Shown piece after piece: positions 7,233 through 55,162 of a stretch of DNA of 64,000 nucleotides. Under the pieces are notes generated by a model, which saw only the letters and a program-made list of their open reading frames with translations, did not search any database and had not been told where the DNA came from. Source of the stretch: a virus (lineage: Duplodnaviria; Caudoviricetes); the IMG/VR virus record IMGVR_UViG_3300046816_000070, positions 455-64,454 of that record; one strand, 5' to 3'. Position 1 is the first letter of the stretch. Each line of letters opens with the position of its first letter. Position numbers and translations under genes: made by a program.

Positions 7233-7438
7233 TACATTCCATCTTGATCGGTATCACCCCCGAAAGAGGAAACGCCCTGCATTGGCGATGAAGGATTAGC
7301 CATAGGGGTGGACTTGGCATAATCGTTGATCGAGGCGCTATTATAGTTGGGGGCAAAGGGTTTTGAGCCTTTTCCCGCATGTTTGACGATTGAGCCGCCC
7401 TTCGTGAGCGGCGTCAGGTGCTTCTTGAGAACGGCCAT
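7232..7438 (-). CDS. Small hypothetical protein
   Basis: Stop/start overlaps with both neighbours. Confidence 0.55.
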   Translation of the reverse strand: MAVLKKHLTPLTKGGSIVKHAGKGSKPFAPNYNSASINDYAKSTPMANPSSPMQGVSSFGGDTDQDGM

Positions 7439-7644
7439 CAGCTTTCTCCCGTCTTTCCGGTATCGCCAAAGCCAGCGTTGACCTTGGGGACATTCAATGA
7501 TTTCGAGTACTGCGTTACGTTCTCGGCAGGCTTGATGCGCGGACTACGCAGAGACGGTGGTCGAGTACCCAACGCGAACCGCGTAAAACTGGGAGCCGAG
7601 GATTGCCTCGGCCCACTGATCTTGATCCTGACCGGGCCAGCCAT
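7438..7644 (-). CDS. Small basic hypothetical protein
   Basis: Tightly packed in the operon, with a TGATG overlap. Confidence 0.55.
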   Translation of the reverse strand: MAGPVRIKISGPRQSSAPSFTRFALGTRPPSLRSPRIKPAENVTQYSKSLNVPKVNAGFGDTGKTGES

Positions 7645-7653
7645 TGGACAGCC

Positions 7654-7875
7654 TTATCGGGCGCTGGTAATTCCGCCCTGCGCAGGCAGAGCGCCGGTAA
7701 AACCGAACATCTTGCCCTTGCCGCCAGCGGCGAACTTCGCACCCGGCGCACTATCCTTTGCAGAATGGTCGCGCGTGGTGCCCTGCTCCGCAGGCTCCGC
7801 AGCCTGTTCAGAGAACATATGCGTCTTTCCGCCCTTGGCGAACTCGACGTTATGTGACTTTTCGTTGGTAGCCAT
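7654..7875 (-). CDS. Small protein with two FAxGGK repeats
   Basis: EFAKGGKTHMF and KFAAGGKGKMF, with a GGGAG SD. Confidence 0.65.
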   Translation of the reverse strand: MATNEKSHNVEFAKGGKTHMFSEQAAEPAEQGTTRDHSAKDSAPGAKFAAGGKGKMFGFTGALPAQGGITSAR

Positions 7876-7920
7876 GTGAGTACTCCCGGTGAATAGTACC
7901 GGGAGGTAATCACACGAACC

Positions 7921-7935
7921 TTAAGGGAAGGTTAA
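7921..7935 (-). promoter_or_regulatory. Perfect CtrA box, late promoter for head genes
   Basis: TTAA-gggaagg-TTAA. One half-site contains the TAA stop of the epimerase gene. Confidence 0.75.
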
Positions 7936-8942
7936 AAGAGGCGGTCTTTCCACGTCTTGGGGGTCTGCCCGTTCACAATCTCCAAGTCCAGATGGTACTT
8001 GAAGGGCTTGGGGCCACGGGCAACAATCGCGAGCAACATCTTTTCCAAGCCAACCCGTAGAGGCGTTTTTGTCTCGTAGCCTAGCAACCGTCGCACCTTG
8101 TCAGAGGAACATAGTGCTACCTTCACTTCTTGCGGACGACCGGGCATGTATTTCGGAGCAAGAACGAAGTGGTCGAGCAGCGAGGCAATCTCGCGGGCAA
8201 GAGCGTTGATCGAGATTGGCTCCTCATCGGGACCGATGTTGATGACTTGCCCAACCACATTATTCTCGAACGCCATTGCCTTGAGGCAGGTGATGCAGTC
8301 ATCGACGTACGAAAAACACCTCTGCTGGGTCCCATCACCATAGATCACCGGTTGCCTTCCTTGCAGCATCATATTCATCATTATGGACGCCACGTTGCGG
8401 TAGGGGTCGTCGTACTTCTGTCGCGGCCCGATGATGTTATGCGGGACTGCGATGACGTGTTCTACCATGTGCGTGACGCACAGGTTTGATAGGAACTGTT
8501 CGACGGCGAGTTTTCCGATGCCGTACGGGTCTTGTGGTCTGCAAGTCATATTCTCCTTGAACGGCGGCAATAACGCTCCGTATCGGGCCATCGAGGAACA
8601 GATCACTATACGCTTCAAACCATTCGATATGGCTGCGGAGATTACCGAGACACTCGCTCCGACTATATTCTGTGTTACAACATGCGGTGAGAATACGCTC
8701 AAGCCTTCGTACGCGGTCGCGGCGCAGTGAAAAAGAATATCGCATCGTTTCATTAACTCCTTCACGGTTGAGAAGTCGTTGCAGTCAACTTGGTGGAACT
8801 CTACGTCGCTGGGCACATTGTCCAGTTCGCCGCCGATCATATTGTCGATACCCACGACCTTATGACCGTCAGCGATCATGGCGTCAGCGAGGTGGCTGCC
8901 GAGGAACCCGGCAACCCCCGTGATGAATATCCTACTTGGCAT
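7932..8942 (-). CDS. NAD-dependent nucleotide-sugar epimerase/dehydratase (extended SDR)
   Basis: ITGVAGFLGS (GxxGxxG), catalytic YGIGK (YxxxK), NIIGP and IYGDGTQQR..SYVDD. Confidence 0.9.
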   Translation of the reverse strand: MPSRIFITGVAGFLGSHLADAMIADGHKVVGIDNMIGGELDNVPSDVEFHQVDCNDFSTVKELMKRCDILFHCAATAYEGLSVFSPHVVTQNIVGASVSVISAAISNGLKRIVICSSMARYGALLPPFKENMTCRPQDPYGIGKLAVEQFLSNLCVTHMVEHVIAVPHNIIGPRQKYDDPYRNVASIMMNMMLQGRQPVIYGDGTQQRCFSYVDDCITCLKAMAFENNVVGQVINIGPDEEPISINALAREIASLLDHFVLAPKYMPGRPQEVKVALCSSDKVRRLLGYETKTPLRVGLEKMLLAIVARGPKPFKYHLDLEIVNGQTPKTWKDRLF

Positions 8943-10212
8943 GACGGATCAGCATCGTGTAGGCATGATCGGGTTCAGCGCGAGACTTGAACGCTTCCCA
9001 CTCATAGCCGGGCGGTAGAAAATTACCCAGCCGTTGCGGAGCCTCATTTATATCCTCGCAGATGAACAGACCGTCCTTCGCCAAGTACGGCAGAAGAATA
9101 TTGGCCGTCAGAATTTGGTGTTCCAGCACATGCGACCCGTCATCACAGATCACATCAAATGGGCCACCTAACAACCGATGCACACCGCCAATGAGAGAGG
9201 AGGCAACGCTCTGGTCAACCAGATCAGTCTTGATCCGCTTCTCGCCTTCAATCATCACCTCAGGCGCTATATCCCACCCGTAGATCATGGCGTTGGGGAA
9301 GAACGACCGCCACATATACAGGCTCGCGCCGTACGGCCAATAAGCATTGTAGTGCTGGGCCTTGTACCCGATGCCAACTTCCAGCACCTTCTTGACTGTG
9401 GCGCATTTATCTTTGAGCGCCTTGTAGTAGTGGGGCGTGTAACAGTGGTGAGGGCCTTTGTCCGTGTTGAAGAAGTAGGCGGCGCTACAGAGAGGCGTCT
9501 CCGGGGGGATACCACGGAAATTCACGAACTGGGTATTGTCATGGTTCGCACTGTAACTGACAAACGGGATTTCGAGAGTATGGTTCTTCTCAACCATCGC
9601 CCAGACTGGCAGATCATTCGGGACGGCTTGTATCTCCGATATGATCTTCGACGCTTCCTCCTTATAGGCGCGGTCAATGGCAGGCAGCCACTTGGTTGGC
9701 CAGATGTGGGTCGAACCAACGAACCGCCAGTTGATCCCACGAAAATCAATCGGGCCTTGTCCCCAGATCGCCGGGAACGGAACTATATCTCCCATATCTG
9801 CATTGCGCAGGCGGTTGAGAAACTCCCGAATGATCTGCTCGGTGACAGGGCGACCGGTCCAATCACCCTGCTTGAGAACGCCTAGGTCCAACCACACCCA
9901 AATGTCCACGTCCGGGTATTCTGCCATCGCCTGCATGGCCCAACTGGTACGCTGGTGCTGAACAATGTTGGACTTCACGTTGTCTCGATCAGTCGGATAC
10001 CGGTCACGCGGAACGTCCGGGTTAGCTGGTGGCAAATCAACTGCCATTGACAACCAGCAATTACTGAACGGGTACTCATCAAACATAACGAAGTCCCCGT
10101 CGCAAGCGCGTTCGAGGCGCTTCCCGAGTTCGTGATACTTGGCTGAGGACAGGTGCGAGACGTTGAGAGGAACGTACGCAGTAACAACCTTTACTTTATT
10201 AGGCATGGTCAA
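8932..10212 (-). CDS. HtrL/YibB-family putative glycosyltransferase fused to SAM-dependent sugar O-methyltransferase
   Basis: N-terminal half has WVWLDLG and WRFVG and is paralogous to 10209..10868. C-terminal half has TDK..H.Y...Y, VLEVGIG, GASLYMW..FFP and DDGSH, as in MycE-like O-methyltransferases. Confidence 0.75.
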   Translation of the reverse strand: MTMPNKVKVVTAYVPLNVSHLSSAKYHELGKRLERACDGDFVMFDEYPFSNCWLSMAVDLPPANPDVPRDRYPTDRDNVKSNIVQHQRTSWAMQAMAEYPDVDIWVWLDLGVLKQGDWTGRPVTEQIIREFLNRLRNADMGDIVPFPAIWGQGPIDFRGINWRFVGSTHIWPTKWLPAIDRAYKEEASKIISEIQAVPNDLPVWAMVEKNHTLEIPFVSYSANHDNTQFVNFRGIPPETPLCSAAYFFNTDKGPHHCYTPHYYKALKDKCATVKKVLEVGIGYKAQHYNAYWPYGASLYMWRSFFPNAMIYGWDIAPEVMIEGEKRIKTDLVDQSVASSLIGGVHRLLGGPFDVICDDGSHVLEHQILTANILLPYLAKDGLFICEDINEAPQRLGNFLPPGYEWEAFKSRAEPDHAYTMLIRHAK

Positions 10213-10868
10213 CCTTTGCTATAGTTAGTGAACATAGTTTCGTTGTGGTCAGCTTCGTACCAACGGATCGCTGTGGCACCGTACTTCTCTACTCGCGCCA
10301 AGTCATTCACTTCCCACGTCATCTTCATCTTGAGACGCAGGTTGCGCATCGTACGATCCTTGAACTCCCGGTCGAGTTGCAGCAGCTTGCTGCGCGGCAC
10401 GACAGCCAGCCCGCCGCAGAAACGCCAGTGTGGGATGCTGTCATCTATAGGCCGGTCGCGCCCCCAGCAGCCGGGGATCGCCAGATCATCCTTCTTCACT
10501 GTGGACAGAAAGTTGTTCAAGACTTCGATAGTAACGCCGGGTACATGCAAGATGCCATAGTCGAGCCATACGAATACGTCTGCTTCTCTGTCGATCAGAG
10601 AGGCGGCTCCAAGCCACTCGAATTTTTGGTGGTTGACTATGTGGTACGCGGGCGTGTTTTTCTTTGGGTTGTCGGCAAAGTGGTGCGTTGGCCACACGGG
10701 CATTTCGCTTACCTGCTTCCATAGCCAGCAATCCTCCACAGTGTTGTAGAACGCCTTGAGCGGAGCGTTCAGCGCCTTCAACTGGATGCCGAGGGCACTG
10801 TATTCCTCGGGCGGGCGCGGATGCTTTGGGATCGGCACGAAGCCGGTTACTACCCTGATTTTAGTCAT
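10209..10868 (-). CDS. HtrL/YibB-family putative glycosyltransferase
   Basis: VVTGF, Y.IVNHQKFEWL, FVWLDYGILH, WRFCGG, WEVN and ADHN motifs. Confidence 0.75.
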   Translation of the reverse strand: MTKIRVVTGFVPIPKHPRPPEEYSALGIQLKALNAPLKAFYNTVEDCWLWKQVSEMPVWPTHHFADNPKKNTPAYHIVNHQKFEWLGAASLIDREADVFVWLDYGILHVPGVTIEVLNNFLSTVKKDDLAIPGCWGRDRPIDDSIPHWRFCGGLAVVPRSKLLQLDREFKDRTMRNLRLKMKMTWEVNDLARVEKYGATAIRWYEADHNETMFTNYSKG

Positions 10869-12858
10869 CGAGCATCATGTCCATAATGTCTTGGGGTTCC
10901 ATCGTGGCTATCCACGCTTCCTTATCTTCGCGTCCGTAGGAAATCATTACGCGCTTTCCATCAGGATGCCACGCCATTCCTGCCGCAAACTCGATCACTT
11001 TATCGTGAAAGAAGAATGGCTTGCTGACCTTCGTCCACGCGCACTCCGGTCCCATATAGACGAACCGGTGCGTATAGTATCGTTTACCGGTCGCAGGGCT
11101 GACGTGCGCTTCGTGAATTATGCCCAGATGGCCCATGCGCCACGGGATATACTGGCCCCCGCCGCTGAGCGTGTCATTGGCATAGCGAATTTTCTTATGT
11201 GTAATGAGGCCCGTCCTCGGGTCTAGTAGTTCGCCCAGCCGGTACACGAACTTCAAATCGTGACCTTCGTTAGAGACGAGCGCAGCCCAGTTCTTCTCGT
11301 TCTGCCGGGTCTGCGGGTAGATAGGCTTAGGGTCATGGTACCGCAGATAGCCGTGTTTGTCCCGCTTGATCCGGGCAAGCCATTGCTCGCACCATCCCTC
11401 CGGGTTCTGTTCACGGAGATTTGATAGCGTCCATAATTCCCCCCGCCACGCGAACAACCGGGTATCTTCAAATCCGATAACCAAGTCATACGCGGGCGCG
11501 GGGAACCCCTCAGGCGGCTGCAATGTGGCTGCCACTTGCACAGTGAAGTCGTTATTCATAGTCAACAGAAAATTGCGCGTGTTGATGGGGTTCGTGCTAT
11601 TCGCTTCCCCGTTGGTACTCTTAATCAAGTACCGACCAGCTTCGTCCATCGTATAGTTCACTGTCCGCACAACACAGTAAATCTGGTTGTTGAGAACCTC
11701 GATTGACGGGTTCATCGGCGTCCAATCCTGCGGCGGCGTGAACGCGATACGGCGCGTCTGGAATGACGGCACATATTCGCACAGCGGCTTGAGGCAGAAG
11801 AACATATTTTGCTTGGCGTGTTGCCGGTTGTGCCAGTTGACCTTCGGGTCGAGCGCCAGCGAGTTCATCACCGAGTAGGCTTGCGGGCGCAGTTTCTCGT
11901 TGTAGTATGCACAGATAGAGAACTCCTCCTTCATGCCTGTGGTGTATGGGTAATCCAGCACGAACAAATGGTCGGAGGGGTACGGGATTTTCATCCCCTC
12001 GGCAGCGATCATCGTGCCCAGCGTGTTCTGCCCCTTCTCTCGATAATACTTCGCCAGTTCCCACAGCGGCTCAGCGCGAGAGGGGCGATAGTTATAGGCT
12101 TCCAACATGGCGGCGATGAACCGGTCATAGCTTTTTAAGGCTGACCAGCAGCGACCAATCTCATACTTGGAATAGAATATTTCCTCGTCCCAGCTACCCA
12201 GTTCGATAACTTTCTCGTAGGCGCGGATCGCTTTTACAAAATCGCCATCGTCCTTGTATGAGTTGGCGAGATAGAACCACGACCGCCCATTGTTGGGATG
12301 CTTTTTAAGATCGTCGCGCAGCAACTTAATATCACGCCGCGCTTTGTTGGTACGGTTCGATCCGTCTGCATGGTCATTGTACCACACGCCGGTAATATGA
12401 CCAGCAGGAGGAATGTCAATGTACTCATGCGTAACGCCGACATAGCCGCCAGTTGCCCGCCGTCCAATGAACCGCACGTTGTTGTAAGTAGTGCCGCTGC
12501 CCTTCTGGGTCAGGAGATAACACTGGCCGCCAATTAGTTGCTTTTTGAAGTCCGGGTCTTCAACCACCAGTTCCATATCTGCATCGCAGAGCAGGAGATA
12601 TGTCCACGGATACGGTGCAGAACGGGCGGCGTCGAGGCCCTCGTTTCTGGCTTGAGAGAAGTCGATAAACTTCCCGTGTGTAAAGTGACCGGGAATACCA
12701 CGTCCCTTAAAAAATGCTTCCACAATCTCAACTGTATTATCAGTTGATCCAGTATCATGTATCACCCAATAGTCGATGTGTGGAGCGACTGACTTGAGGG
12801 CGCGTTCGATCCGTGCCGCTTCGTTGCGGACGATCATATTCAGACACAGTTTCATCAT
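10861..12858 (-). CDS. GT2 glycosyltransferase with TPR repeats and C-terminal beta-propeller (GH130/GT91-like) domain
   Basis: LNMIVRNE, DTGSTD, FSQARN, DAD and HE motifs, a TPR region (WFYLANSY, PSRAEPL), and C-terminal NPSI, GFEDTRLF, EKNW, IEFAAG and SYG.ED. Confidence 0.85.
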   Translation of the reverse strand: MMKLCLNMIVRNEAARIERALKSVAPHIDYWVIHDTGSTDNTVEIVEAFFKGRGIPGHFTHGKFIDFSQARNEGLDAARSAPYPWTYLLLCDADMELVVEDPDFKKQLIGGQCYLLTQKGSGTTYNNVRFIGRRATGGYVGVTHEYIDIPPAGHITGVWYNDHADGSNRTNKARRDIKLLRDDLKKHPNNGRSWFYLANSYKDDGDFVKAIRAYEKVIELGSWDEEIFYSKYEIGRCWSALKSYDRFIAAMLEAYNYRPSRAEPLWELAKYYREKGQNTLGTMIAAEGMKIPYPSDHLFVLDYPYTTGMKEEFSICAYYNEKLRPQAYSVMNSLALDPKVNWHNRQHAKQNMFFCLKPLCEYVPSFQTRRIAFTPPQDWTPMNPSIEVLNNQIYCVVRTVNYTMDEAGRYLIKSTNGEANSTNPINTRNFLLTMNNDFTVQVAATLQPPEGFPAPAYDLVIGFEDTRLFAWRGELWTLSNLREQNPEGWCEQWLARIKRDKHGYLRYHDPKPIYPQTRQNEKNWAALVSNEGHDLKFVYRLGELLDPRTGLITHKKIRYANDTLSGGGQYIPWRMGHLGIIHEAHVSPATGKRYYTHRFVYMGPECAWTKVSKPFFFHDKVIEFAAGMAWHPDGKRVMISYGREDKEAWIATMEPQDIMDMMLDD

Positions 12859-14308: not shown

Positions 14309-14323
14309 TTACTGCTTCCTTAA
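14309..14323 (-). promoter_or_regulatory. CtrA-type box (1 mismatch), late promoter
   Basis: TTAC-tgcttcc-TTAA, containing the portal stop codon. TAGTAAT lies 11 nt downstream on the minus strand. Confidence 0.6.
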
Positions 14324-16617
14324 CCGACGCCGGGAGAGATAGGATGGCCCCCGCCGCGCGGCGTATTCCCGAGGATATTAGCCGTCTGAGGGCCGAGGCC
14401 CCCGCCTGACAACTGCCCCTGCTGGGTTCCTTGACCCACGGCAGCGGCCCTTGCCATATCCATTTGCGGATTGTTTGTCGCACCGGGCTGCCCGCCGTTC
14501 GGGCTGGCCTCAGTACCGATGTGGGTGGGGTTGCCTTCCGGCATACCCAGCCTGCTCGCCAACACACCTGCTGTCAACTCCGTTGAAATTCTCTTAATAC
14601 CCGCTCCTACACCAGTTGCCACCCCTTTGTCAACCTCTTGCTGGATGGCCTGCTCATGCTGGCCCTGCTGGTTCTGTTTGTCCTGCTGCTCCATCTGCTC
14701 CATAGCTTCCTCGGGCGGGACAATCTCCTCCCCGTCCATACCGATGGTGCTGGACACTGACCGCAGAACCGCCGCCCTGCCTTTCAGGCCCACGATGCGC
14801 TGGTCAACCGGGTTGATGGTTGCCTGCAAGAACTCGATCTGGCGCTGGCGCAGCGTCTCGCGCTGGATGGCGACGTTCACGCCTTGGACACTGATCTTCT
14901 CCTGACCGGTCAAGATACCTGTGGTATCCGTCAGCATTATCAGATCAGACAACTGCAACAGGCACGGCTCAAACACGTCCCTGTCGATGTTGGCGCTAAC
15001 TGATTGTAGTATCTTCGATGCATTGCCCATCAGCATGGCTAGCCCGGACGCTGTGCGCCCCGCGCCGCCCGATGAGGCTTGCCCACCAACGTATTTCGGG
15101 ATCGCGGAAACATCGTCCGCAATAGACACAAACTCTTGAAACACAGCGATTAATTGCTGCGCGTTCGAGGTAGGCATGAAGAACGAGATTGGAACTTGCG
15201 TGTTGTTCCCGACTGGATCGTTTCGGACGTGCCACCTTTTCCACGGGAACATATCCTCGCCGTTTTCCTCGGGGGCCAAGCGGTCGTCGTTGATGACGAC
15301 TTGCGGGCCTGAGGCAATGCTTAAGTTATTGACAAGACTGCGTAAAGTGGCGTTTGCCACTTCCTGCAAGTCTGTCAACAAGTCTGTCAAGCCGTTGCCG
15401 ACCGGGGTGCCGGGAACTTTCTCAAAGGAGGTAATGAAGTAGGGATGCCGCTGGCGCGGGCTGGGAGACAGTTGGCACTTGATGACGTGCGCCCCGATGA
15501 CCCAGCACTGGACGTTGTAGTCTCGGAGTTCATCCGGTACGGCCATACCGTAATCTTGCAGGATGCGCCCCTGCACATTGCCGTTGAACTCCATCATTGA
15601 AATCATGCCGCTGCGATTGAAGGCCGGGTTCTCACGGCTCTCCAAGACCGCGCGTTCGGCGTCGGTAGTATCCCAGTTGTCGTACAAGCCCCCACGCCCA
15701 TACTCGTCCAAGACCGCGCGTAATTCGTCTTGATTGTATCCGGGCAAGTCGAGCAAGTCGTTCAACTCTGCGCGAGTGATCCGTAGCTTCTCGATCACGT
15801 TTGCGTTTTCTATATCCGCGACACCGGGGGTCCACCACAGGTCGAACGGCGATACTCGGTTCCATGTCAGCTTAGGTTTCTGTTGAACAGTTGGCTGCCC
15901 GCCGCCCTTCGGCCACACCACTTCTGGCATGACCTTGACAACCGGGCCTTTGATACAGGCGAATGGGAAGATCGGCAGATCGACTAGGAACTCAGCCATC
16001 GCATGATAGAAGCCGCCGTCCCGTAATAGCGTTTCGATTTTGCTATCACTGTCGCGGGCCTGTTGGGCAGCCTTCTTTTTCGCAGCGTCCTTAGCACTCT
16101 CCACCAATGCAGTACGCCGCTTGGTAACGTCCTGTGGGTTGGCAGGCTTGCCCGTGCGCTGCTGGATAATCTGCTGCTCAGTCTTAGTGAGTTGGTCGAT
16201 AGACTGTATAATCTCCGGGGGTATCTCGGGGTCAGCAGGCGGCTTGACACACCACGGCTGGTCCTGCCCCAGATAAATGTCCCGCAGGAGGGATGAAGCT
16301 GCACGACACTTCTGGGCGACGAGCCGAGCATAGACTTCGGACCCGCCCCACTTCTTGATTTCTCTAATCTTTTCAGCATTATACTGGCCGTTGAAGGTCC
16401 GCAATGCAACGAGCATACGCTCCGACCAACCCGCAGAGGTATTGCGGTGGTTTCGGAATATCTCGAATTGCCCTTTGATGTACCCCGCGAGTGGAGTGGC
16501 ATCTTGCTGGGGCGGCTGCTGGGCCTGCGCAGCGGCAGCATCCCGCGCTTGGAGTTGTTGCTCCAACACTGCTGGCGGAATGACTTGCAAAACCCCAGAT
16601 TGACCTAAATCACTCAT
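14320..16617 (-). CDS. Portal protein (P22-like podovirus type)
   Basis: 765 aa with VSPFDLWW.P, PG...GNG...L.DLQ, L.IASGPQ and RTASGLAMLM motifs and a Gln-rich C-terminal tail. Near the terminase genes. Confidence 0.85.
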   Translation of the reverse strand: MSDLGQSGVLQVIPPAVLEQQLQARDAAAAQAQQPPQQDATPLAGYIKGQFEIFRNHRNTSAGWSERMLVALRTFNGQYNAEKIREIKKWGGSEVYARLVAQKCRAASSLLRDIYLGQDQPWCVKPPADPEIPPEIIQSIDQLTKTEQQIIQQRTGKPANPQDVTKRRTALVESAKDAAKKKAAQQARDSDSKIETLLRDGGFYHAMAEFLVDLPIFPFACIKGPVVKVMPEVVWPKGGGQPTVQQKPKLTWNRVSPFDLWWTPGVADIENANVIEKLRITRAELNDLLDLPGYNQDELRAVLDEYGRGGLYDNWDTTDAERAVLESRENPAFNRSGMISMMEFNGNVQGRILQDYGMAVPDELRDYNVQCWVIGAHVIKCQLSPSPRQRHPYFITSFEKVPGTPVGNGLTDLLTDLQEVANATLRSLVNNLSIASGPQVVINDDRLAPEENGEDMFPWKRWHVRNDPVGNNTQVPISFFMPTSNAQQLIAVFQEFVSIADDVSAIPKYVGGQASSGGAGRTASGLAMLMGNASKILQSVSANIDRDVFEPCLLQLSDLIMLTDTTGILTGQEKISVQGVNVAIQRETLRQRQIEFLQATINPVDQRIVGLKGRAAVLRSVSSTIGMDGEEIVPPEEAMEQMEQQDKQNQQGQHEQAIQQEVDKGVATGVGAGIKRISTELTAGVLASRLGMPEGNPTHIGTEASPNGGQPGATNNPQMDMARAAAVGQGTQQGQLSGGGLGPQTANILGNTPRGGGHPISPGVG

Positions 16618-17243: not shown

Positions 17244-17988
17244 GAAGCCGCGCATCTGTTACTTCGATATTGAGACTGCTCCCTCACTCGGATATTTCTG
17301 GGGCAAGCTGTGGGAGACAGACATTATCGAGGTTAGGCAGCCTTGGTACATGCTCTGCTTCGCGTACCAGTGGGAAGGCGAGGCCAAGATACACGCTCAC
17401 TCCCTCCCCGAATACAAGAACTTCAAGAAAGACAAACAGGACGACAGCGCACTCATCAAGGACTTGTGGAAAGTCTTTGACGAGGCAGACATACTGATCG
17501 CGCACAACGGCGACCGCTTCGACATTCGCAAGACATACGCCCGGTTCGCGATGCTGGGTATGCCGCCGCCGTCACCGTCCAAGACCATCGACACATACAA
17601 GCAGGCCAAGCGGTGGTTCGACTTTGAGAGCAACCGGCTGAATACGCTGGGCAGGCTACTCGGGGTCGGCACGAAGCTGGCCAACACAGGGTTCGCCCTG
17701 TGGAAGAAGGTCATGCTCACCGCCGACGCAAAAGCGTGGGGCCTGATGGTCCGGTACAACAAACAGGACGTGCGGCTGCTCAAGCGCGTCTATCTCAAGC
17801 TGCGCCCCTTCATGCGAACGCATCCGAACCTGACGATCTACGATCACTTCGACAGGCCAGCTTGCCCGAAGTGTACGTCAGTCGATGTGGTCAAGCGCGG
17901 CTACCAGTACGCAGCCAAGTTGAAATACCAGCGGTTTCTGTGCAACTCCTGCCACGGCTGGTTCCAGTCAGGTAAGTGTATCAAATGA
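17236..17988 (+). CDS. DEDD/RNase H-like 3'-5' exonuclease with C-terminal zinc ribbon
   Basis: FDIET, AHNGDRFD, IDT and YNKQDV motifs, plus CPKC...CNSC. Start moved to ATG 17236. Confidence 0.85.
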   Translation: MNRKPRICYFDIETAPSLGYFWGKLWETDIIEVRQPWYMLCFAYQWEGEAKIHAHSLPEYKNFKKDKQDDSALIKDLWKVFDEADILIAHNGDRFDIRKTYARFAMLGMPPPSPSKTIDTYKQAKRWFDFESNRLNTLGRLLGVGTKLANTGFALWKKVMLTADAKAWGLMVRYNKQDVRLLKRVYLKLRPFMRTHPNLTIYDHFDRPACPKCTSVDVVKRGYQYAAKLKYQRFLCNSCHGWFQSGKCIK

Positions 17989-19442
17989 TAAAATTCGACG
18001 CGACCCCCACGCCGACGATCAAGAACTTTATGAAGTCCAACGCCTTCGGGCGATTGATCGCTGGCCCTGTGGGTAGCGGCAAGACCACAGGCTGTATCGT
18101 TGAATTGTTCCGGCGCTCTATGGAGCAGGACCAAGCAGGGGACGGCTTCCGCTACACCCGCCACGCCATTGTGCGGCAGACATTGAAGCAGTTGAAAGAT
18201 ACTGTCCTCAAGGACTGCCGCGACTGGCTGGGCGAATTGGGCGAGTGGCGAGTATCGGAAAATACCTTCTTACTGAACTTCGGTGATGTACGCAGCGAAT
18301 GGATATTCATCCCGCTGGAAGACGCACAGGATCAGGCACGGCTGCTGTCGATGCAGTTGACGGGAGCGTGGGGATCAGAAATCATCGAAATGAACTACGA
18401 TATTCTCGCGCCGCTGTCAGGCCGTATTGGCCGATACCCTCGCGCCGAGAAGGGAACGCCAACGTGGAGCGGCATCATAGCCGACACCAACTTCCCTACT
18501 GATCTTACACCTTGGCACGATTTCATGGAAAATCCGCCAGCGGACTGGCAAATTTTCAAGCAGCCAAGCGGTCTATCCCCGGACGCTGAGAACCTCAACT
18601 GGCTGGTGCAGAACAAAGAGACGATCAAGTTGCCGATCAATCATCCGGCAAGGCTGGCTCAGGGGCGGCGATACTACGAGCGTCTGGTCGAAACCTACGG
18701 GGCGGATAGCGACTGGGTGAAGCGGTACGTCTATGCACAGTATGGCGAAGACCCGACCGGGGCTGCCGTGTTCAAGCAATCGTGGAATACGCAGTTCCAC
18801 ACCGTCGAGGACACGCTGCTGATCCCCGGCTACCCGCTCATCATCGCACAGGACTTCGGCAGGAACCCGTGGAGCCTGATCTGTCAGGTTGACCACATGG
18901 GTCGCCTGCTGGTACACAAGGAAGTTGCCGCCACCAATATAGGATTAGAGAAGCATGTCCTCGAACACCTCCGACCGGTGCTGTACAGTGATAAGTATTC
19001 TGGATACAAGGTCGCGGTTGTGGGCGACCCATCTGGTGTTGCGAAGGGGAACGTCTCCGAAGAAAGTTGTTTTGACGCGCTCAAGCGCATGGGACTACCA
19101 GCGTTCCCCGCTCCGACCAACGACATTGAACCGCGCCTACGAGCGGTGGAAGCCCTCTTGGGTCGGCAAGTCATGGGCGGACCCGCGCTCGTTGTAAGCC
19201 GGGCGGGCTGTCCCTTCCTGATACGGGCAATGGCTGGTGGCTACCGCTTCACGAAGACGAAGCAGGGGGGCCTCCGCGTTGTCCCTGAGAAGAACGATCC
19301 CGAGGGATTTTCGCACGTTGCAGACGATCTGCAATACGCCGCTCTGATCGCACATGGGAACCTAGGATTAGAAATAGCCCGCAGGTTGCGACCACGGTTA
19401 AAAACCCCCCGCTCGTCAATATCCTCAGCAGCATGGACATGA
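17985..19442 (+). CDS. terL: Terminase large subunit
   Basis: Walker A GPVGSGKT, coupling motif DTN, and nuclease motifs QDFGRNP, GDPSG and SHVADDLQY. Confidence 0.92.
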   Translation: MIKFDATPTPTIKNFMKSNAFGRLIAGPVGSGKTTGCIVELFRRSMEQDQAGDGFRYTRHAIVRQTLKQLKDTVLKDCRDWLGELGEWRVSENTFLLNFGDVRSEWIFIPLEDAQDQARLLSMQLTGAWGSEIIEMNYDILAPLSGRIGRYPRAEKGTPTWSGIIADTNFPTDLTPWHDFMENPPADWQIFKQPSGLSPDAENLNWLVQNKETIKLPINHPARLAQGRRYYERLVETYGADSDWVKRYVYAQYGEDPTGAAVFKQSWNTQFHTVEDTLLIPGYPLIIAQDFGRNPWSLICQVDHMGRLLVHKEVAATNIGLEKHVLEHLRPVLYSDKYSGYKVAVVGDPSGVAKGNVSEESCFDALKRMGLPAFPAPTNDIEPRLRAVEALLGRQVMGGPALVVSRAGCPFLIRAMAGGYRFTKTKQGGLRVVPEKNDPEGFSHVADDLQYAALIAHGNLGLEIARRLRPRLKTPRSSISSAAWT

Positions 19443-19444
19443 GA

Positions 19445-19470
19445 TAGCCTCCCCAGTTATGGAGAGGCTA
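19445..19470. terminator. Hairpin between convergent genes
   Basis: TAGCCT...AGGCTA inverted repeat right after the terL stop. The T-run is about 12 nt away. Confidence 0.4.
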
Positions 19471-19481
19471 CCACGTCTGGA

Positions 19482-19604
19482 TTATTTTTTTCTTGCCCTT
19501 GCCATCGCGAGCATCATTCTTTTTTTGTCGAGGCGGTTGGGCTTGCGACCGTTAATCATCTTGGCTTGACGGCGACGGCGCTTCGCCGTGGAGGTAGCAC
19601 ACAT
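19482..19604 (-). CDS. 40-aa highly basic peptide
   Basis: Hand-translated MCATSTAKRRRRQAKMINGRKPNRLDKKRMMLAMARARKK, with a TAATG overlap with the upstream gene. Confidence 0.5.
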   Translation of the reverse strand: MCATSTAKRRRRQAKMINGRKPNRLDKKRMMLAMARARKK

Positions 19605-19870
19605 TACGGAATGTCCTTGTCAGCTTGTAGGGTTTCTAGGCGAACTATCTCGGCACGGTAGCGAGCGATCCTGCGGGCGCGGCGTCGAGCAAAGTAGTTC
19701 CGCATTGTCTGACTTTCCCATATCTGGATCGTGTACCAGACGAACGCGGCAACTGCGGCAATGGGCGGGAAGAACCCGATCAGGGAGCCGAGGATGGCGG
19801 TCCCAGACAGGGAGTGGCCTATCCAGCCGATCCAGTTAAAGTCTTCCATTGCCCGGTCCCTTACTATCAT
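19604..19870 (-). CDS. Holin-like small membrane protein
   Basis: Hydrophobic segment(s) followed by a basic C-terminal tail. Confidence 0.5.
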   Translation of the reverse strand: MIVRDRAMEDFNWIGWIGHSLSGTAILGSLIGFFPPIAAVAAFVWYTIQIWESQTMRNYFARRRARRIARYRAEIVRLETLQADKDIP

Positions 19871-19911
19871 GGTGGCCTCTCTCGGAGGGGTCCATTAGTA
19901 TCTGCGTAAGG

Positions 19912-19926
19912 TTTACGCCACGTTAA
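19912..19926 (-). promoter_or_regulatory. CtrA-type box (1 mismatch)
   Basis: TTTA-cgccacg-TTAA, containing the stop of 19923..20366. TACTAAT lies 11 nt downstream on the minus strand. Confidence 0.6.
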
Positions 19927-20366
19927 TTGATACTATCCTCTCCTGTCGGACATTGAACGAGCAAGTGGACCATCTGGTTCAACTCCTTCTGCCGCATGGA
20001 GGCGTGGTTCAGCAGGGACTTGATGGCCCCGTCGAGTTCCCTCTCGGGGTTGGCCTTGAACTGGTCCTCCTTGGCCATAGCCCGGAGAACAGTGCTGGTA
20101 TGCAAACGACCCATCGCGGTGTGCAGGGCGAGACAGGTGGCGGCTACGTTGCCGAAGAACTCGCGCTCGACCTTGCGGTCGAAGCAGTCGATCAGGGTCA
20201 TCATCGCTGCGGATTGCAGCGGGCCTATACTGTCGAACCCGATGGGCTGGGCGAGACAGTCAATTATCATCCCCTCGTCAAATAGCGGGCTAGTTCCCTT
20301 CGTCTTGAGGGGCTTCTTGGGCGGCGACCGTTTCACCGCCTTCGCCGGTTGCTTTTCCACTGACAT
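19923..20366 (-). CDS. Hypothetical protein
   Basis: ORF downstream of and overlapping the winged-helix regulator. Start is uncertain. Confidence 0.55.
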   Translation of the reverse strand: MSVEKQPAKAVKRSPPKKPLKTKGTSPLFDEGMIIDCLAQPIGFDSIGPLQSAAMMTLIDCFDRKVEREFFGNVAATCLALHTAMGRLHTSTVLRAMAKEDQFKANPERELDGAIKSLLNHASMRQKELNQMVHLLVQCPTGEDSIN

Positions 20367-20916
20367 AGTTGTTCACCATTTCCAGTATTTGTTTTCGCTG
20401 GACCGGCTCTATGTAATACCCACAGGCCCATAGGGTAGTGATCTTGAGGTTAAACGGCTTTAGGCGCTGACGCAAGAGGCAGATTACCACATCTACCATC
20501 TTGGGGTCCGTCTCCTCTTTGCCGGGTGGACGGCGGCTTTCGATGACTTGGTGCAGCGTTTCCTTGCTCACCTCGTTCCGGTTTATCAGGACGGCGAGGA
20601 AGGAAGCCTGTAGGCGCGTGATCTTGAACAACTGCTTGCAGGTGAAGATCAGGCTGTCGTCGTTGATGCGGTTCTGTCGGATAAAGACGGGCGAGCGGTC
20701 GTCGCGGCTCTGGCCGACCGGCCAGTCGTCCTTCGGCATCTGGACGATACGCCCAGAATAGATCGCTGTCTCAACGGCCTCTCTAATCGCTTCCGCCGTC
20801 TGCTTGAACGCCCTCGCCATAGCACGGATTGGTACGCCTTCGTCTGCAAATCGTTCGGCGTAGGGGACGAGTGCCGGTGTCAGGATTTCTTCGGGTAGGC
20901 TATCGGGGTCAGCCAT
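20290..20916 (-). CDS. CtrA-like winged-helix transcription regulator lacking a receiver domain
   Basis: C-terminal ETDPKMVDVVICLLRQRL...ITTLWACGY aligns by eye with the CtrA DNA-binding domain (EPELKIIDVFICKLRKKL...IETVWGRGY). N-terminus has an HTH-like GVPIRAMARAF segment. ATG 20916 has a GGAGAG SD. Confidence 0.8.
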   Translation of the reverse strand: MADPDSLPEEILTPALVPYAERFADEGVPIRAMARAFKQTAEAIREAVETAIYSGRIVQMPKDDWPVGQSRDDRSPVFIRQNRINDDSLIFTCKQLFKITRLQASFLAVLINRNEVSKETLHQVIESRRPPGKEETDPKMVDVVICLLRQRLKPFNLKITTLWACGYYIEPVQRKQILEMVNNYVSGKATGEGGETVAAQEAPQDEGN

Positions 20917-21069
20917 GTAACTCTCCACGGTAAAGGGAGAGTGGGTCCAACAGGATGATACCCCCATTGGTCAACCACGCTATCCGCGCAGGACCTATCT
21001 CCCGCTGGACCCGTGACTGTTCTATCCTCAAACCCTTACACATCTGTTACCTTGCTACTCTTTCGGTGG

Positions 21070-21084
21070 TTAACAGACACTTAA
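21070..21084 (-). promoter_or_regulatory. Perfect CtrA box upstream of the CtrA-like gene
   Basis: TTAA-cagacac-TTAA. Confidence 0.75.
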
Positions 21085-21126
21085 TGCTTTAAGATTGGGC
21101 CGTCAAGCGGTTGGATCACGAAAAAT

Positions 21127-21324
21127 TTACTCGTCCTCATCCGGTTCTTCGTCCAGCCGGGTCAGGTGTCCGCCGCAGCGGCGCGTCGCGTACACGGGCG
21201 GCTCGAACAGGATTTGCTCGTTCACCTCATCAAAGTCCTCGTCCAGCAGGATGGCGTCCGGGTCCACGACAAACGCGGGCATCCGGGGAGACGGTATATG
21301 ACGTATGTGCCTTGGCTTACTCAT
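21127..21324 (-). CDS. Small acidic hypothetical protein
   Basis: 65-aa ORF downstream of a structured leader. Confidence 0.45.
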   Translation of the reverse strand: MSKPRHIRHIPSPRMPAFVVDPDAILLDEDFDEVNEQILFEPPVYATRRCGGHLTRLDEEPDEDE

Positions 21325-21340
21325 TCCTCATTCCATCTGC

Positions 21341-21448
21341 GGGGTCCCCGGTGATGGAACCGCAAGGGTATGACCGGGGACCCCTAAGCCCGCCCCTCTC
21401 GGGGCTGACAGCTTTCTCGACAGCCGCACACGGCGACCTCACGGGCTA
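21341..21448 (-). ncRNA. Candidate structured RNA / leader
   Basis: 12-bp stem GGGGTCCCCGGT/ACCGGGGACCCC, plus a multibranch closed by AGCCCG/CGGGCT containing a GCCCC-GAGA-GGGGC tetraloop hairpin on the minus strand. Confidence 0.4.
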
Positions 21449-21478
21449 GGCCCAGTAGCAAGGTATCATCGGCAATCG

Positions 21479-21493
21479 TAAATGTAAAGTTAA
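21479..21493 (-). promoter_or_regulatory. CtrA-type box (1 mismatch)
   Basis: TAAA-tgtaaag-TTAA upstream of the structured region. Confidence 0.45.
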
Positions 21494-21601
21494 TTTGGTT
21501 GGAAGGGCAGGTAGTAGGTAGGGAGTTCGGCGGCCCACCATGCCGACTTTGCACACACCGCACCCTCTCGGCAGCGGCTCCCTCCCACTCGGACTTCCGG
21601 G

Positions 21602-21796
21602 TCATGCCCAGAAGAATACCAACAACATCAGCGTCCAGAGCCAGTCGGCGTTGCCAGTGATGAACGCCAGCGGGATGCCGCTGAATATCACGGAGACAAT
21701 AGCGGTCACGATCAGCCGATCCGTAATGGAAAGGTCCGACGATGGGCCGGGGATATTCGTCCCCCGGATTTTATTGGGGCTACGGGAATGTTTCAT
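21602..21796 (-). CDS. Small membrane protein
   Basis: Two hydrophobic segments and an ATGA overlap with the upstream gene. Confidence 0.55.
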   Translation of the reverse strand: MKHSRSPNKIRGTNIPGPSSDLSITDRLIVTAIVSVIFSGIPLAFITGNADWLWTLMLLVFFWA

Positions 21797-22053
21797 GCGG
21801 GACCTGAGAAGCCGGGGATGACAACGGTGGGTATGCCCTGAGTGCCGGTAGGGGCGAGCAGAACTACCGGCATCGTCCCGGCAACGAACGACGCGCCGGA
21901 CACCTGCCTGTGTTCCTTGTTCTTGGACTTGCCGCCCTCGGGGCCGGTCGCGCCGGTCGAGAGGACGTTCACCGTCTTGAAGACGCTAGCGGCAGGCCCG
22001 GTGAACCCTGCTCCTTGGGCACCGGTAACAACTCGTACGTTCGTGTTTGCCAT
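21793..22053 (-). CDS. Small protein with beta-strand/TG-motif repeats (possible virion decoration)
   Basis: VRVVTGAQG, VNVLSTGATGP and PVVLLAPTGTQG repeats, downstream of a CtrA box. Confidence 0.6.
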   Translation of the reverse strand: MANTNVRVVTGAQGAGFTGPAASVFKTVNVLSTGATGPEGGKSKNKEHRQVSGASFVAGTMPVVLLAPTGTQGIPTVVIPGFSGPA

Positions 22054-22179
22054 CTGGTCTGCCTCTATTGGTGCGGTGGACTACTGGATGCGGAAGTCTC
22101 CGACTTACTCCGGGTGTCATTTCACCGGGTCATCTAGAATACTACCCTCTCACCGCCCGTAGTGTTTGAGGCTCATACC

Positions 22180-22194
22180 TTAAGATTTACTTAA
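22180..22194 (-). promoter_or_regulatory. Perfect CtrA box
   Basis: TTAA-gatttac-TTAA, overlapping the last codons of the GIY-YIG gene. Confidence 0.7.
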
Positions 22195-22614
22195 TCGTTC
22201 AAGACGACGCACTCTTTTATATTCCTGATAGCAAGAGTTACAGTACGCCTTGCCGGGGCGCGGGTTTTCTTTTGCCCGCCCGCAACGTGGACAGTATCTC
22301 CCGTCACCTTTTCGTTTCGCGCCCGCTTTGCGCAATACCGCCGTCCCAATTCGGTCGGGCGCAACGGTCGCCCGGTTATATTTTGGGTTCTCTGACAGGA
22401 TGGCAGCCGCCTCTGCTTTATATCCTGAGGCCCAGTCTGGGTACCATTTCACCTTTACAGTCGCGATTTCCTTCGCCCACGAACGGGTCGCGCCATGATG
22501 TGCTAACCGTCCGCCGAATGGATTGGTCGAACACCCAATGTATAGCAAGGTGTCATCGGCAGAGAAGAAGCGATAGACCGCGTGGGGGAGTACGTCTTTC
22601 TCATAGTGTTTCAT
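22180..22614 (-). CDS. GIY-YIG nuclease with C-terminal zinc finger
   Basis: AVYRF...LLYIG...RL..H, AE..AI...NPKYN and CPRC...CNSC. Start at ATG 22614 has a GGAGG SD. Confidence 0.8.
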   Translation of the reverse strand: MKHYEKDVLPHAVYRFFSADDTLLYIGCSTNPFGGRLAHHGATRSWAKEIATVKVKWYPDWASGYKAEAAAILSENPKYNRATVAPDRIGTAVLRKAGAKRKGDGRYCPRCGRAKENPRPGKAYCNSCYQEYKRVRRLERLSKS

Positions 22615-22786
22615 TGATCCCTCCGTTGTATGTCCATACATAACACAAAAATTGCCATATGTCAAATCTTACCTTATATATTTCCAAAGGGGGTAGATAA
22701 GAAAGCAGGCCACTACCTCTGTCCATCATACCCCACGGGGCGAAATTAACCTTAACGGTTAACCCTAACGGGCTAGCGCGGGGCGC

Positions 22787-22823
22787 AAAAAGACCCGCCG
22801 CATATGCGAACATATGCGGCGGG
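22787..22823 (-). terminator. Rho-independent terminator
   Basis: 13-bp stem CCCGCCGCATATG with a TTCG loop, followed by TCTTTTT on the minus strand. Confidence 0.8.
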
Positions 22824-22842
22824 ATACTGTCAGAGTATGGCG

Positions 22843-23199
22843 TTACTTCTTGCTAGACTGTAACGCTAAGTCAACCTTAGTCCAATCAATGTCTTTCCCG
22901 GCCAACTCTGGCGCTTTCGCCTTCTTCCGGCCTTTGCCGTCATCCAGAGTAACAGAGACTTTGCCGAAATTGAGCAAAACGACCGGCTCCTCAGTCATTC
23001 CGCCTTTTACCGCGATCTGTTGCATGTAGGCAATGAAAAGATCGCGCTTTTTCTGATGTACCTCGCCGGACGCCTTTTGCTCGTCATAAAGCGATTGTGC
23101 CTTAGCATCCGGCAAATCGCCTTTTACATTCGGATCGAAAACCAAAAAGACGCGTCCGGGATTTTTGCTTTCTGGTCCGCTTACTGTAGTCTTTGGCAT
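22843..23199 (-). CDS. Hypothetical Lys-rich protein
   Basis: 118-aa ORF followed by a strong terminator. Confidence 0.65.
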   Translation of the reverse strand: MPKTTVSGPESKNPGRVFLVFDPNVKGDLPDAKAQSLYDEQKASGEVHQKKRDLFIAYMQQIAVKGGMTEEPVVLLNFGKVSVTLDDGKGRKKAKAPELAGKDIDWTKVDLALQSSKK

Positions 23200-23279
23200 T
23201 TTACTGCCCTTTCCGCTTTGTGGCGGAAGCGGAATTGCTTCCGCCTACGCGGCTTGCCATTTCGGGCAAGCCACATTTA

Positions 23280-23830
23280 TGCCATAATCTGAGAGGTATT
23301 ATTAATCCTAGAGGGTCCGAAGGTGCTACCTTAATATTCAAAAGTGAGCAAAGGGGTGCATATTAAAAAACTACTATTTAAGAAGTCCTTGGTACCACAT
23401 CATTACATCGCTGTTTTGGAGTTATAATATGATAATATGAACGCTAGGACGGAGCAATAGTGGAAATCTCTACCATCCCACCTTTTCACCTTTTTGCGGG
23501 AGCATGGAATAGGCAATAGCAAGCAAAGCGCCCTCTCTCTCTCTCTACTTGGAACAAAACATAAACATAAAGAAAAAGCCAGCAATCGCAAGGTGTAAAG
23601 GTTCAACCAGTATCAAAGGTGAACCAAAATTAGTTAACAAATCATTAGTCAGGGTAGAGAAAGTCAAGGTTGCTCCAGAAAACGGTTCATATTATCATAT
23701 TTGCAATAATTGCGCAAAAAGACCGTTTCACGCAATATTGTTGCGCATAATATGAATAATATGAACACATTTGCGCCACATTTGAAGGATAAATTCACCT
23801 TTATTCTCACCTTTCTTGCATATAACTAAT
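23280..23830. repeat. AT-rich divergent control region with direct/inverted repeats (candidate origin or genome-end region)
   Basis: AATATGATAATATGAAC at 23426-23442, its reverse complement at 23685-23701 and a variant at 23747-23766. Also recurring CACCTT/AAGGTG and a CtrA-like box at 23634-23648. Confidence 0.6.
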
Positions 23831-30698: not shown

Positions 30699-30775
30699 GT
30701 TGCCATCGTCTAGCGGCCTAGGACGCTTGCCCCCTCAGGTGAGAAACGCATGTTCAAATCATGCTGGCAACGCCA
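30699..30775 (+). tRNA. Atypical tRNA-Glu-like gene 1 (77 nt, 8-nt anticodon loop CCCCTCAG)
   Basis: Acceptor GTTGCCA/TGGCAAC, D-arm GTCT...GGAC, T-arm GCATG-TTCAAAT-CATGC, and encoded G-CCA. Confidence 0.85.
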
Positions 30776-54756: not shown

Positions 54757-55162
54757 CTTGACCTTGATATACCCACGTCTCGCCGGTCACGCTGTCTGTC
54801 ATCGTGAGGTTCTGGACACGCGAGACAATGACGAACTGGGATGGATCGTCCGGGTTCGTGATCTTAACGTCCTTTCGGGTGATCGTCTTCTGTATCCATC
54901 GGCCAACCTGAGGCGGCTTATTCGGCTTCGGAGGTATCGTGGTGCCGCCCTGCCCAGTAATGTTGGTCACGAAGCGGTTGTTAACCACAGTCACGCCCGT
55001 CTGCCCCGTGAGATTGCGCACGATCTGCGAAAGCGCATTGATAGCCCGCAGAGCCGAAGCCAAGTCCGTCGCCTGTGGGATCGGCGGAAATTTGGACGGG
55101 TCCGGTTGATCCGGTTTGATGATCGGTTCGATACTACAGATCGGTGCATTAGGATCAGACAT
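54749..55162 (-). CDS. Hypothetical tail-associated protein
   Basis: Coupled to the tail tubular gene. Confidence 0.6.
   Translation of the reverse strand: MSDPNAPICSIEPIIKPDQPDPSKFPPIPQATDLASALRAINALSQIVRNLTGQTGVTVVNNRFVTNITGQGGTTIPPKPNKPPQVGRWIQKTITRKDVKITNPDDPSQFVIVSRVQNLTMTDSVTGETWVYQGQDG

Follow-up and report, generated by a model that had tools for sequence, protein, structure and literature searches.

Can a bacteriophage carry its own version of CtrA and use it on CtrA-type sites in its own genome? CtrA, an essential protein, is the hub from which Alphaproteobacteria control their cell cycle, and phosphorylation and proteolysis normally gate its activity. The question is raised by a minus-strand gene, here called the regulator gene, in IMG/VR record IMGVR_UViG_3300046816_000070, an uncultivated virus rated 100% complete. 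The whole stretch of DNA analysed, 64,000 of the 64,454 bases of this record, is referred to as the window. The original prediction, made from the letters alone, had described the gene product as a phage-encoded CtrA mimic without a receiver, preceded by a perfect TTAA-N7-TTAA box. Our analysis suggested that it is probably a phage regulator with a winged helix captured from CtrA, in which the receiver was swapped for a helix-turn-helix (HTH), and which acts on CtrA-type boxes.

The open reading frame (ORF) runs from 20967 to 20290 on the minus strand, the original prediction having named no strand, and encodes 225 aa. The probable start is the ATG at 20916, giving a 208-aa form that is identical to an ESM Atlas entry. 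Residues 139-152 (KMVDVVICLLRQRL) fit the CtrA recognition-helix pattern K..DV.IC.LR..L, and residues 161-167 (TLWACGY) fit T.W..GY, in agreement with the original prediction. Its other structural claims, an HTH-like N-terminus and the lack of a phospho-receiver, were also confirmed. At E<=10 the protein matched only Trans_reg_C, HTH_PafC and Kunitz_legume in Pfam, and the receiver family Response_reg gave no match. An AlphaFold2 model built on the family alignment (mean predicted local distance difference test score (pLDDT) 89.8, predicted template modelling score 0.68) was all-helical through residue 155, and residues 1-100 contained no alpha/beta fold. A three-helix HTH occupied residues 17-53 (helices 17-25, 30-37 and 41-53, pLDDT ~96). 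Next came a conserved linker, PKDDWP, whose W65 does not vary among 146 sequences, then two helices at 77-97 and the winged helix at 101-169. The canonical OmpR/PhoB effector domain starts with an N-terminal beta-sheet. The regulator model departs from this arrangement, as the helices at 77-97 seemed to stand in place of the sheet. Past the wing lies an extra helix whose R174 is invariant across the 40 sequences of the closer alignment. The acidic tail after it was of low confidence (pLDDT 56-61 beyond residue 190), and the C-terminus reads ...DEGN. The model contained no long hydrophobic helix.

Structure comparison with VIA-align against 48,161 chains placed OmpR/PhoB DNA-binding domains at the top. 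ArlR gave a Z score of 9.2 with a root-mean-square deviation (rmsd) of 2.8 over 76 residues, VanR, ToxR and PmrA each gave 8.7, and CadC gave 8.0. Foldseek found no match in the PDB at E<=1e-3 for either the whole model or the N-terminal model, and ranked OmpR-type DNA-binding domains high by probability and rmsd only. The N-terminal part modelled alone (pLDDT 83.4) resembled the HTHs of Lrp/AsnC, Tn3 resolvase and DeoR (Z 5.0-5.5). Its similarity to the G20C small terminase HTH (Z 4.8) and to the Caulobacter GcrA DNA-binding domain (Z 4.4, rmsd 1.9 over 43 residues) lay within the generic HTH background, and no GcrA match was listed by Pfam for the regulator or the family members. A profile of this part matched 2lvs in the PDB (E 3.8e-4), HTH_23 was matched in 11 of 146 family members, and the ESM Atlas held no usable match. 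Overall, the models indicated that the N-terminal half is a generic tri-helical HTH and not a receiver. The homodimer prediction (two copies, wide alignment) scored 0.31 against a mark of 0.42, which neither supports nor opposes a dimer.

The family gave a clearer view of the C-terminal domain. Trans_reg_C was matched by 144 of the 146 aligned members at E<=0.01 (best 1.4e-11), and Response_reg was absent from the 20 Pfam families matched by most of these members. The family profile matched 44 PDB sequences at E<=0.01 (best 1.1e-8), which by name were OmpR/PhoB-type response regulators or DNA-binding domains. The recognition helix was the most conserved stretch, with K-x-x-D-V-x-I-C-x-L-R present in 218 of 265 family proteins; TxWxxGY was present in 228.

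To place this domain, CtrA genes were gathered by a degenerate wing-motif pattern. This gave 120 stretches, almost all from Alphaproteobacteria, from which 103 ORFs were extracted. Trans_reg_C matches were collected from three alphaproteobacterial genomes (20 + 11 + 11 = 42, 3 of them CtrA). In a maximum-likelihood tree (IQ-TREE) of 96 winged-helix domains (44 family, 13 CtrA, 39 paralogues; 97 columns), the paralogues split from CtrA plus the family with a support of 100/100, and the family formed a single clade (100/99). In none of 200 bootstrap trees did a branch set CtrA apart from all other domains. Provided that the tree is rooted within the paralogues, the family thus nests inside CtrA. 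The NCBIfam CtrA equivalog NF045991 was the top model for seven of eight other members tested (E 2.5e-17 to 3.8e-6), and the eighth, P0041, had no match. These matches were confined to the DNA-binding domain (model positions ~137-221 of 224), and the 350-bit cut-off was not reached (12.5 bits for the regulator, 63.4 for the best member, P0201). P0201, a basal member, shared 49% identity with an Agrobacterium CtrA over 72 residues (E 1e-17), and the regulator shared 37% with CtrA over 52 residues (E 2e-5). All 13 CtrA rows carry the Cys of the recognition helix, as do 225 of 265 family proteins, whereas none of the 39 paralogues does. Since the tree, the CtrA model, the identities and the Cys agree, a grouping with non-CtrA OmpR regulators, which had been named as the outcome that would speak against the original prediction, was not borne out. 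At the level of sequence comparison, these results establish that the winged helix derives from CtrA.

The DNA around the gene carries the matching sites. The box upstream of the regulator reads TTAACAGACACTTAA at 21070-21084, or TTAAGTGTCTGTTAAC on the gene strand (21084..21070, plus the C at 21069). It had been placed about 155 bp upstream and indeed ends 153 nt before the ATG, with a further TTAA nearby at 21089-21092. A second box, at 22180..22194, lies 127 nt upstream of a minus-strand ORF starting at 22053. The window holds three full boxes, against a mean of 0.20 (standard deviation 0.40) in dinucleotide-preserving shuffles, and none of 100 shuffles reached three. Among 35 non-redundant loci (340,889 nt), TTAA pairs occurred 29 times at a spacing of 7 and 0-8 times at each other spacing from 0 to 15. 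When all 4-mer/gap/4-mer pairs with gaps of 3-10 were scanned in 53,095 nt of intergenic DNA from the window and 34 related loci, TTAA-N7-TTAA ranked first (19 observed against 1.42 expected), followed by its overlapping variants. In the window and loci, 21 of 32 boxes were intergenic, where 12% of the bases lie, and 19 of 32 preceded an ORF start by at most 250 nt. In the 200 nt ahead of the family gene, the coding strand contained TTAAC in 16 of 32 loci, compared with 105 of 558 other ORFs (Fisher p 1.2e-4). The full box in the same interval gave 5 of 32 and 21 of 558 (p 0.01). Many orthologue promoters contained TTAACC or TTAACCAT beside a TTGACA-like hexamer, and in several the TTAAC(C) adjoined or replaced the TTGACA-like -35. 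Rhizobium phage RHph_TM3_14A, the closest cultured phage by its large terminase (TerL), lacks a full family member, and its 60,889 nt contained no box even though the host possesses CtrA. This hints that the boxes may travel with the gene, as a single data point.

Two other spaced pairs were enriched in the same intergenic scan, ACCT-N4-ACCT (13 against 0.8 expected) and the inverted TTAC-N7-GTAA (9 against 0.45 expected). These may be recognised by other regulators. TTAAC repeats (TTAACCTTAACGGTTAACCCTAAC) were also seen clustered at 22746-22765, in the 177-nt intergenic gap 22666-22842, adjoined by a 13-bp GC-rich terminator-like hairpin at 22794-22823 on the minus strand.

Several observations weigh against a CtrA-derived regulator acting on these boxes. 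The regulator alone matched Trans_reg_C with 20.2-20.5 bits (E 6e-4), under the 26.2 cut-off, so that the assignment of the winged-helix domain rests on the family. Its single-sequence searches reached a best E of 0.014 in PHROGs and 1.5 (ArlR, phmmer) in the PDB, and in NCBIfam both TctD (19.1 bits) and TorR (12.8) scored above CtrA (12.5). The tree took its paralogues from three genomes and has few columns, and its ultrafast bootstrap correlation of 0.923 was not fully converged. Compared with CtrA, the recognition helix carries F to V and K to L/H changes, which may lie at positions touching bases. The alpha2-alpha3 loop is longer by 5 residues in the regulator and by up to ~10 in other members, and a CtrA-like loop was retained only by basal members such as P0201 and the protein of Roseobacter phage RDJL3. 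In PhoB-type regulators this is the transactivation loop, which contacts sigma. With the helix substitutions and the longer loop together, both the specificity and the contact with RNA polymerase could have changed. As for the boxes, the ORF calls behind the positional counts in the related loci were crude longest-ORF calls. L017 and L018 are near-duplicates, and the loci share ancestry, so that the box counts across them are not independent. The third box of the window, at 7921, is not obviously in a promoter position. Eight complete relatives of the window contained 1, 1, 4, 2, 3, 2, 6 and 0 full boxes, where a reversed control pattern occurred 0, 2, 0, 0, 0, 2, 0 and 1 times. Thus, one clade genome that carries the regulator gene has no full box, and neither has the 61.5-kb genome of RDJL3, which carries a family member. 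The host, moreover, is one that we infer to be alphaproteobacterial.

These counts also bear on one further claim of the original prediction, that the protein uncouples late transcription from the host cell cycle. The boxes clustered in the small-gene region around the regulator and not in the structural module. With 0-6 full boxes per genome, and none in one clade genome or in RDJL3, this claim found no support in the way the boxes are distributed.

The proposed mechanism is as follows. The regulator, being receiver-less, would bind CtrA-type boxes without the need for the CckA-ChpT phosphorelay. Its targets would be a small number of promoters within the small-gene block 23199..19604 of the phage, its own among them. 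Phosphorylated host CtrA might fire the regulator promoter first, and the phage protein would then sustain the firing. By also occupying host CtrA sites, it would take cell-cycle-controlled genes out of the control of the host. Our best guess is that it activates transcription at phage promoters and acts on the host genome as a competitor. Of all the steps in this proposal, the sign of regulation is the one we are least sure of.

The sign is also where the strongest rival differs. A pure competitor would bind CtrA boxes without being able to recruit RNA polymerase, shut off the host CtrA regulon and repress its own gene. The alpha2-alpha3 loop, 5-10 residues longer than that of CtrA and unlike it in most members, is in keeping with such a protein. 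So is the box 153 nt upstream with an element in between, which is not a classic activator site overlapping the -35 unless the 5' leader is long. However, a phage would profit little from purely repressive sites at several of its promoters, and 19 of 32 phage boxes lie close upstream of ORF starts. In several orthologue promoters, moreover, TTAAC(C) adjoins the -35 or takes its position, as activator sites do. We therefore regard a pure competitor as unlikely, though it deserves to be taken seriously.

It seems rather improbable that the boxes are read by host CtrA only, in the manner of lytic deferment, with the phage protein having drifted to another specificity or job. CtrA sites are documented in phages without such a protein (PMC9437464, in the parts available to us). 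The substitutions in the recognition helix and the two boxless genomes that carry a family gene fit this explanation as well. Against it, K-x-x-D-V-x-I-C-x-L-R was kept in most of the family, and the boxes were over-represented ahead of the very gene in question. In the intergenic DNA of the clade, TTAA-N7-TTAA was outranked by none of the other spaced 4-mer pairs, and RHph_TM3_14A, again as a single data point, has no boxes even though CtrA is present in its host.

A role outside transcription, as a DNA-recognition subunit for packaging (like a small terminase) or for origin binding, appears very improbable. The gene stands beside that of the large terminase in 44 of 45 loci, its HTH aligns with that of a small terminase among many other HTHs, and a conserved structured element adjoins it. 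Yet the gene is convergent with TerL and is transcribed towards it, not together with it, and the boxes are dispersed upstream of several genes with no single pac- or ori-like cluster. The oligomerisation core typical of small terminases was not evident in the model, and the Z score of 4.8 is generic HTH background. An ordinary OmpR/PhoB effector domain resembling CtrA by convergence or chance can be set aside as scarcely credible, for although the best NCBIfam and PDB matches of the regulator itself are TctD and ArlR, the tree unites CtrA and the family against 39 paralogues with full support, the CtrA model ranks first for nearly all other members tested, and intermediate members are up to about half identical to CtrA.

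Between the box and the regulator gene we found a conserved structured element. It consists of a 9-bp GC-rich outer stem, an inner hairpin and the loop motif AUGGGGGU, with a conserved single-stranded motif A/U-U/A-GGGGG-U. The covariance model R1 matched 13 sources at E<=1e-6, once per locus and always on the gene strand upstream of the gene (L003:3107-3185, L004:5486-5564, L007:5621-5694, L032:5604-5682 and others). The pairing held in 98.3% of cells, with compensatory changes in 6 of 9 pairs, and 0 of 500 shuffles scored as high. Rfam gave no family at E<=1 anywhere in 19400-23600, the element included. In the window ~23 nt separate the 3' end of the element from the ATG; in relatives, a stem search placed that end ~36-430 nt ahead of the gene start. 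The element may represent an RNA leader or a small RNA, or else a site on the DNA. A second variant (…ATAAG-Y-CGGTCGGAAGC…ATAGGGGGGACC…), embedded in a long variable stem, was noted by eye and by stem search at L017:499-568, L019:1991-2063, L023:1908-1984, L025:5385-5452 and L029:4763-4832; model R1 did not detect it.

The family is large. A word-indexed search returned 124 relatives of 137-229 aa at E<=1e-3 among 315 candidates. A HMMER scan of 1.84 billion cluster representatives returned 764 at E<=1e-3, 219 at <=1e-10 and 43 at <=1e-30, counted as clusters at 50% identity and nearly all aligned over residues ~20-185. Members were located on viral contigs and metagenome contigs. The 185,579 species genomes, searched with two peptide patterns, yielded 33 matching stretches and no confirmed copy, so that prophage copies are possible. 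A search for longer, receiver-effector forms gave only two proteins, both kinase chimeras. In P0269 (479 aa), the first 106 residues of a family member are fused to the half of a hybrid histidine kinase that comprises HisKA, HATPase and receiver. In P0270 (687 aa), the C-terminal half of a family member is attached to the membrane/PAS half of a kinase. Both lie on one 193,638-nt metagenome contig and look like reciprocal fusions, as integration, inversion or misassembly would give. We also noted the C-terminal residues of the family. Ala-Ala at this position marks CtrA for ClpXP. It was the commonest C-terminal dipeptide of the family (45 of 265 proteins), and 63 of 265 ended in AA, VA, SA, GA, LA or IA.

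In a clade of lytic, podovirus-like phages of ~60-68 kb from soil and rhizosphere, the regulator belongs to the core genes kept in synteny, which upholds the view of the original prediction that it is phage-encoded. Peptide patterns retrieved 46 related loci from IMG/VR, 13 of them on contigs of 60.9-68.4 kb. The order of regulator, partner, membrane protein and convergent TerL was kept across the loci. A homologue of the partner directly followed the regulator in 21 of 45 loci, and a homologue of the 88-aa ORF was present in 18 of 45. This ORF, itself convergent with the TerL gene, is likely a membrane protein; the partner gave no lead in Pfam or the ESM Atlas. The window carries a podovirus-like gene set, as judged by PHROGs scans of 80 ORFs, and no integrase or repressor was found among their matches at E<=1e-5. 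The nearest cultured TerL sequences, 50.6% identical, belong to four Rhizobium phages of ~60.9 kb. In the closest of them, RHph_TM3_14A, a 105-aa ORF (L211:1474-1788) gave a weak winged-helix match (23.5 bits), lacks the N-terminal HTH and ends in NAA. Its kinship is unsettled, because it joined the paralogues in a quick tree on an end branch of 7.8 changes per column. The stretch, or most of it, recurred in contigs from runs labelled soil or rhizosphere metagenome. Six runs contained at least half of the sampled words (two of them possibly the source of this DNA), and 22 contained the stretch or part of it, none of these being listed as RNA.

Three further features of the genome were noted. 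A GIY-YIG endonuclease ORF (22180-22665, minus strand, Pfam 28.0 bits), probably a homing endonuclease, lies within the small-gene block, and homologues occurred in just 4 of 45 related loci. Between the head and tail-fibre genes, the region 7932-12858 (minus strand) encodes nucleotide-sugar epimerase, methyltransferase-like and glycosyltransferase genes, a set that suggests sugar modification of virion or host surface components. Two tandem tRNA genes were found on the plus strand at 30699-30775 and 30786-30862 (Rfam tRNA, 39.7 and 39.1 bits). ARAGORN could not assign the anticodon of either, and the anticodon arm could be drawn solely with a 6-nt or 8-nt loop (CCCUCA or CCCCUCAG), which is of non-canonical length. 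The coordinates of the main features are given in Table 1.

Table 1. Regulator locus and other features of the window.
Feature	Coordinates	Strand	Basis or remark
Regulator gene, 208 aa, receiver-less CtrA-type	20290..20916	-	stop codon 20290-20292
N-terminal three-helix HTH, residues 17-53, core ADEGVPIRAMARA	20758..20868	-	AlphaFold2
OmpR/PhoB-type winged helix, CtrA-derived by sequence comparison, residues 86-169	20410..20661	-	family, structure, tree
Recognition helix KMVDVVICLLRQRL, residues 139-152	20461..20502	-	translation; carries CtrA-type Cys
Extra C-terminal helix past the wing, residues 171-185	20362..20406	-	AlphaFold2
Shine-Dalgarno GGAGAG, 4 nt ahead of regulator ATG	20921..20926	-	sequence
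Conserved structured element, ~75 nt	20940..21015	-	between box and regulator gene; covariance model R1
CtrA-type box TTAAGTGTCTGTTAA(C)	21070..21084	-	ends 153 nt upstream of regulator ATG
Second full box	22180..22194		overlaps GIY-YIG stop codon
Third full box	7921..7935		between convergent ORF 3' ends (7418-7879 +, 7932-8942 -)
Downstream partner gene, 115 aa from ATG at 20270	19923..20270	-	conserved; ESM Atlas has 115-aa form
88-aa ORF, last gene of block	19604..19870	-	hydrophobic stretch; conserved
Large terminase (TerL)	17976-19442	+	PHROGs
Major head protein	4802-5806		PHROGs
Portal/adaptor	14320-16617		PHROGs
T7-type DNA polymerase	31863-33734		PHROGs
Primase-helicase	40354-43362		PHROGs
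Internal virion protein	55155-57926		PHROGs
Endolysin and holin	59627-60315		PHROGs

Compared with known systems, the family stands closest to CtrA itself. Both have the recognition-helix pattern K-[IM]-[IV]-D-V-x-I-C-x-L-R-K-K-L, together with T-x-W-x-x-G-Y in the wing. The DNA-binding domain of CtrA is the closest relative of the winged helix of the family, and among spaced 4-mer pairs in the intergenic DNA of these phages the CtrA target TTAA-N7-TTAA(C) ranks first. CtrA has a receiver with a phospho-acceptor Asp, whereas the regulator has neither and carries the N-terminal HTH in their place. The regulator further differs in its longer alpha2-alpha3 loop, its extra C-terminal helix, its carriage by a phage and the lack of an Ala-Ala end. 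Two-component response regulators in general combine receiver and effector in one chain, and the regulator departs from them in having no receiver. ToxR, CadC and SARP/AfsR likewise have an OmpR/PhoB winged helix without a phospho-receiver. In those proteins, however, the winged helix is N-terminal and is joined to membrane/periplasmic or BTA/NB-ARC modules, while that of the regulator is C-terminal. They are also cellular and not derived from CtrA, unlike the regulator family.

The only cultured-phage match in 50,697 records was a 279-aa protein of RDJL3 (UFK26651.1, L216:1156-1995), annotated as 'CzcR-like response regulator'. A quick tree placed its winged helix within the clade of the family (SH-aLRT 100), and CtrA was its top NCBIfam model (E 1.9e-14). 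It is also receiver-less and has a small HTH with an EG-x-P-x-R-x-I-A-R core. The order of its domains is swapped, with a DUF6456-like N-terminus followed by a very CtrA-like winged helix and then a C-terminal HTH. The hhalign probability between this HTH and the N-terminal HTH of the family was 23.8%. RDJL3 is a phage of another type, outside the clade of the regulator. The label 'CzcR-like response regulator' is misleading. According to the portion of the 2026 report available to us, the host of RDJL3 becomes resistant through mutations in the CtrA phosphorelay, and that portion does not mention the winged-helix gene (PMC13392355). Alphaproteobacterial phages carry CtrA sites that are read by host CtrA, described as 'lytic deferment', and phiCbK carries a GcrA homologue (Mascolo et al. 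2022, PMC9437464); the parts of that paper available to us report no phage-encoded CtrA-like protein. As in the lytic deferment phages, CtrA boxes in phage promoters would tie expression to the cell-cycle regulator of the host. There the host CtrA reads the boxes, whereas here the phage supplies its own CtrA-type DNA-binding domain. We found no report of a phage-encoded CtrA-like protein in the literature, supplements with possible gene tables lying outside this coverage. Among phage copies of host cell-cycle regulators, what differs here is a receiver-less CtrA head fused to an HTH.

If the regulator works as proposed, a receiver-less phage CtrA DNA-binding domain would be a direct route to the takeover of the CtrA hub. 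A broader version of this idea, which we offer only tentatively, is that a large family of phage proteins represents a constitutively active 'stolen' CtrA, freed from CckA-ChpT and, for most of the family, from ClpXP. In phages of marine, soil and rhizosphere Alphaproteobacteria, it would drive a small phage regulon with positive feedback. It would also fix the host CtrA regulon, which covers origin firing, division, flagella and pili, in whatever state favours the phage. The structured element and the downstream partner would be further parts of such a module. The regulator would serve as a natural 'always-on' or 'always-blocking' CtrA variant for the dissection of the CtrA regulon. The family, with its 764 clusters, is found in phages of soil and rhizosphere, and the cultured relatives of these phages infect Rhizobium. 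Together with RDJL3, a cultured member whose host escapes through mutations in the CtrA pathway, this makes the idea testable now. The finding also corrects the annotation of the RDJL3 protein. In addition, the family gene is a marker for assigning uncultivated phages to alphaproteobacterial hosts.

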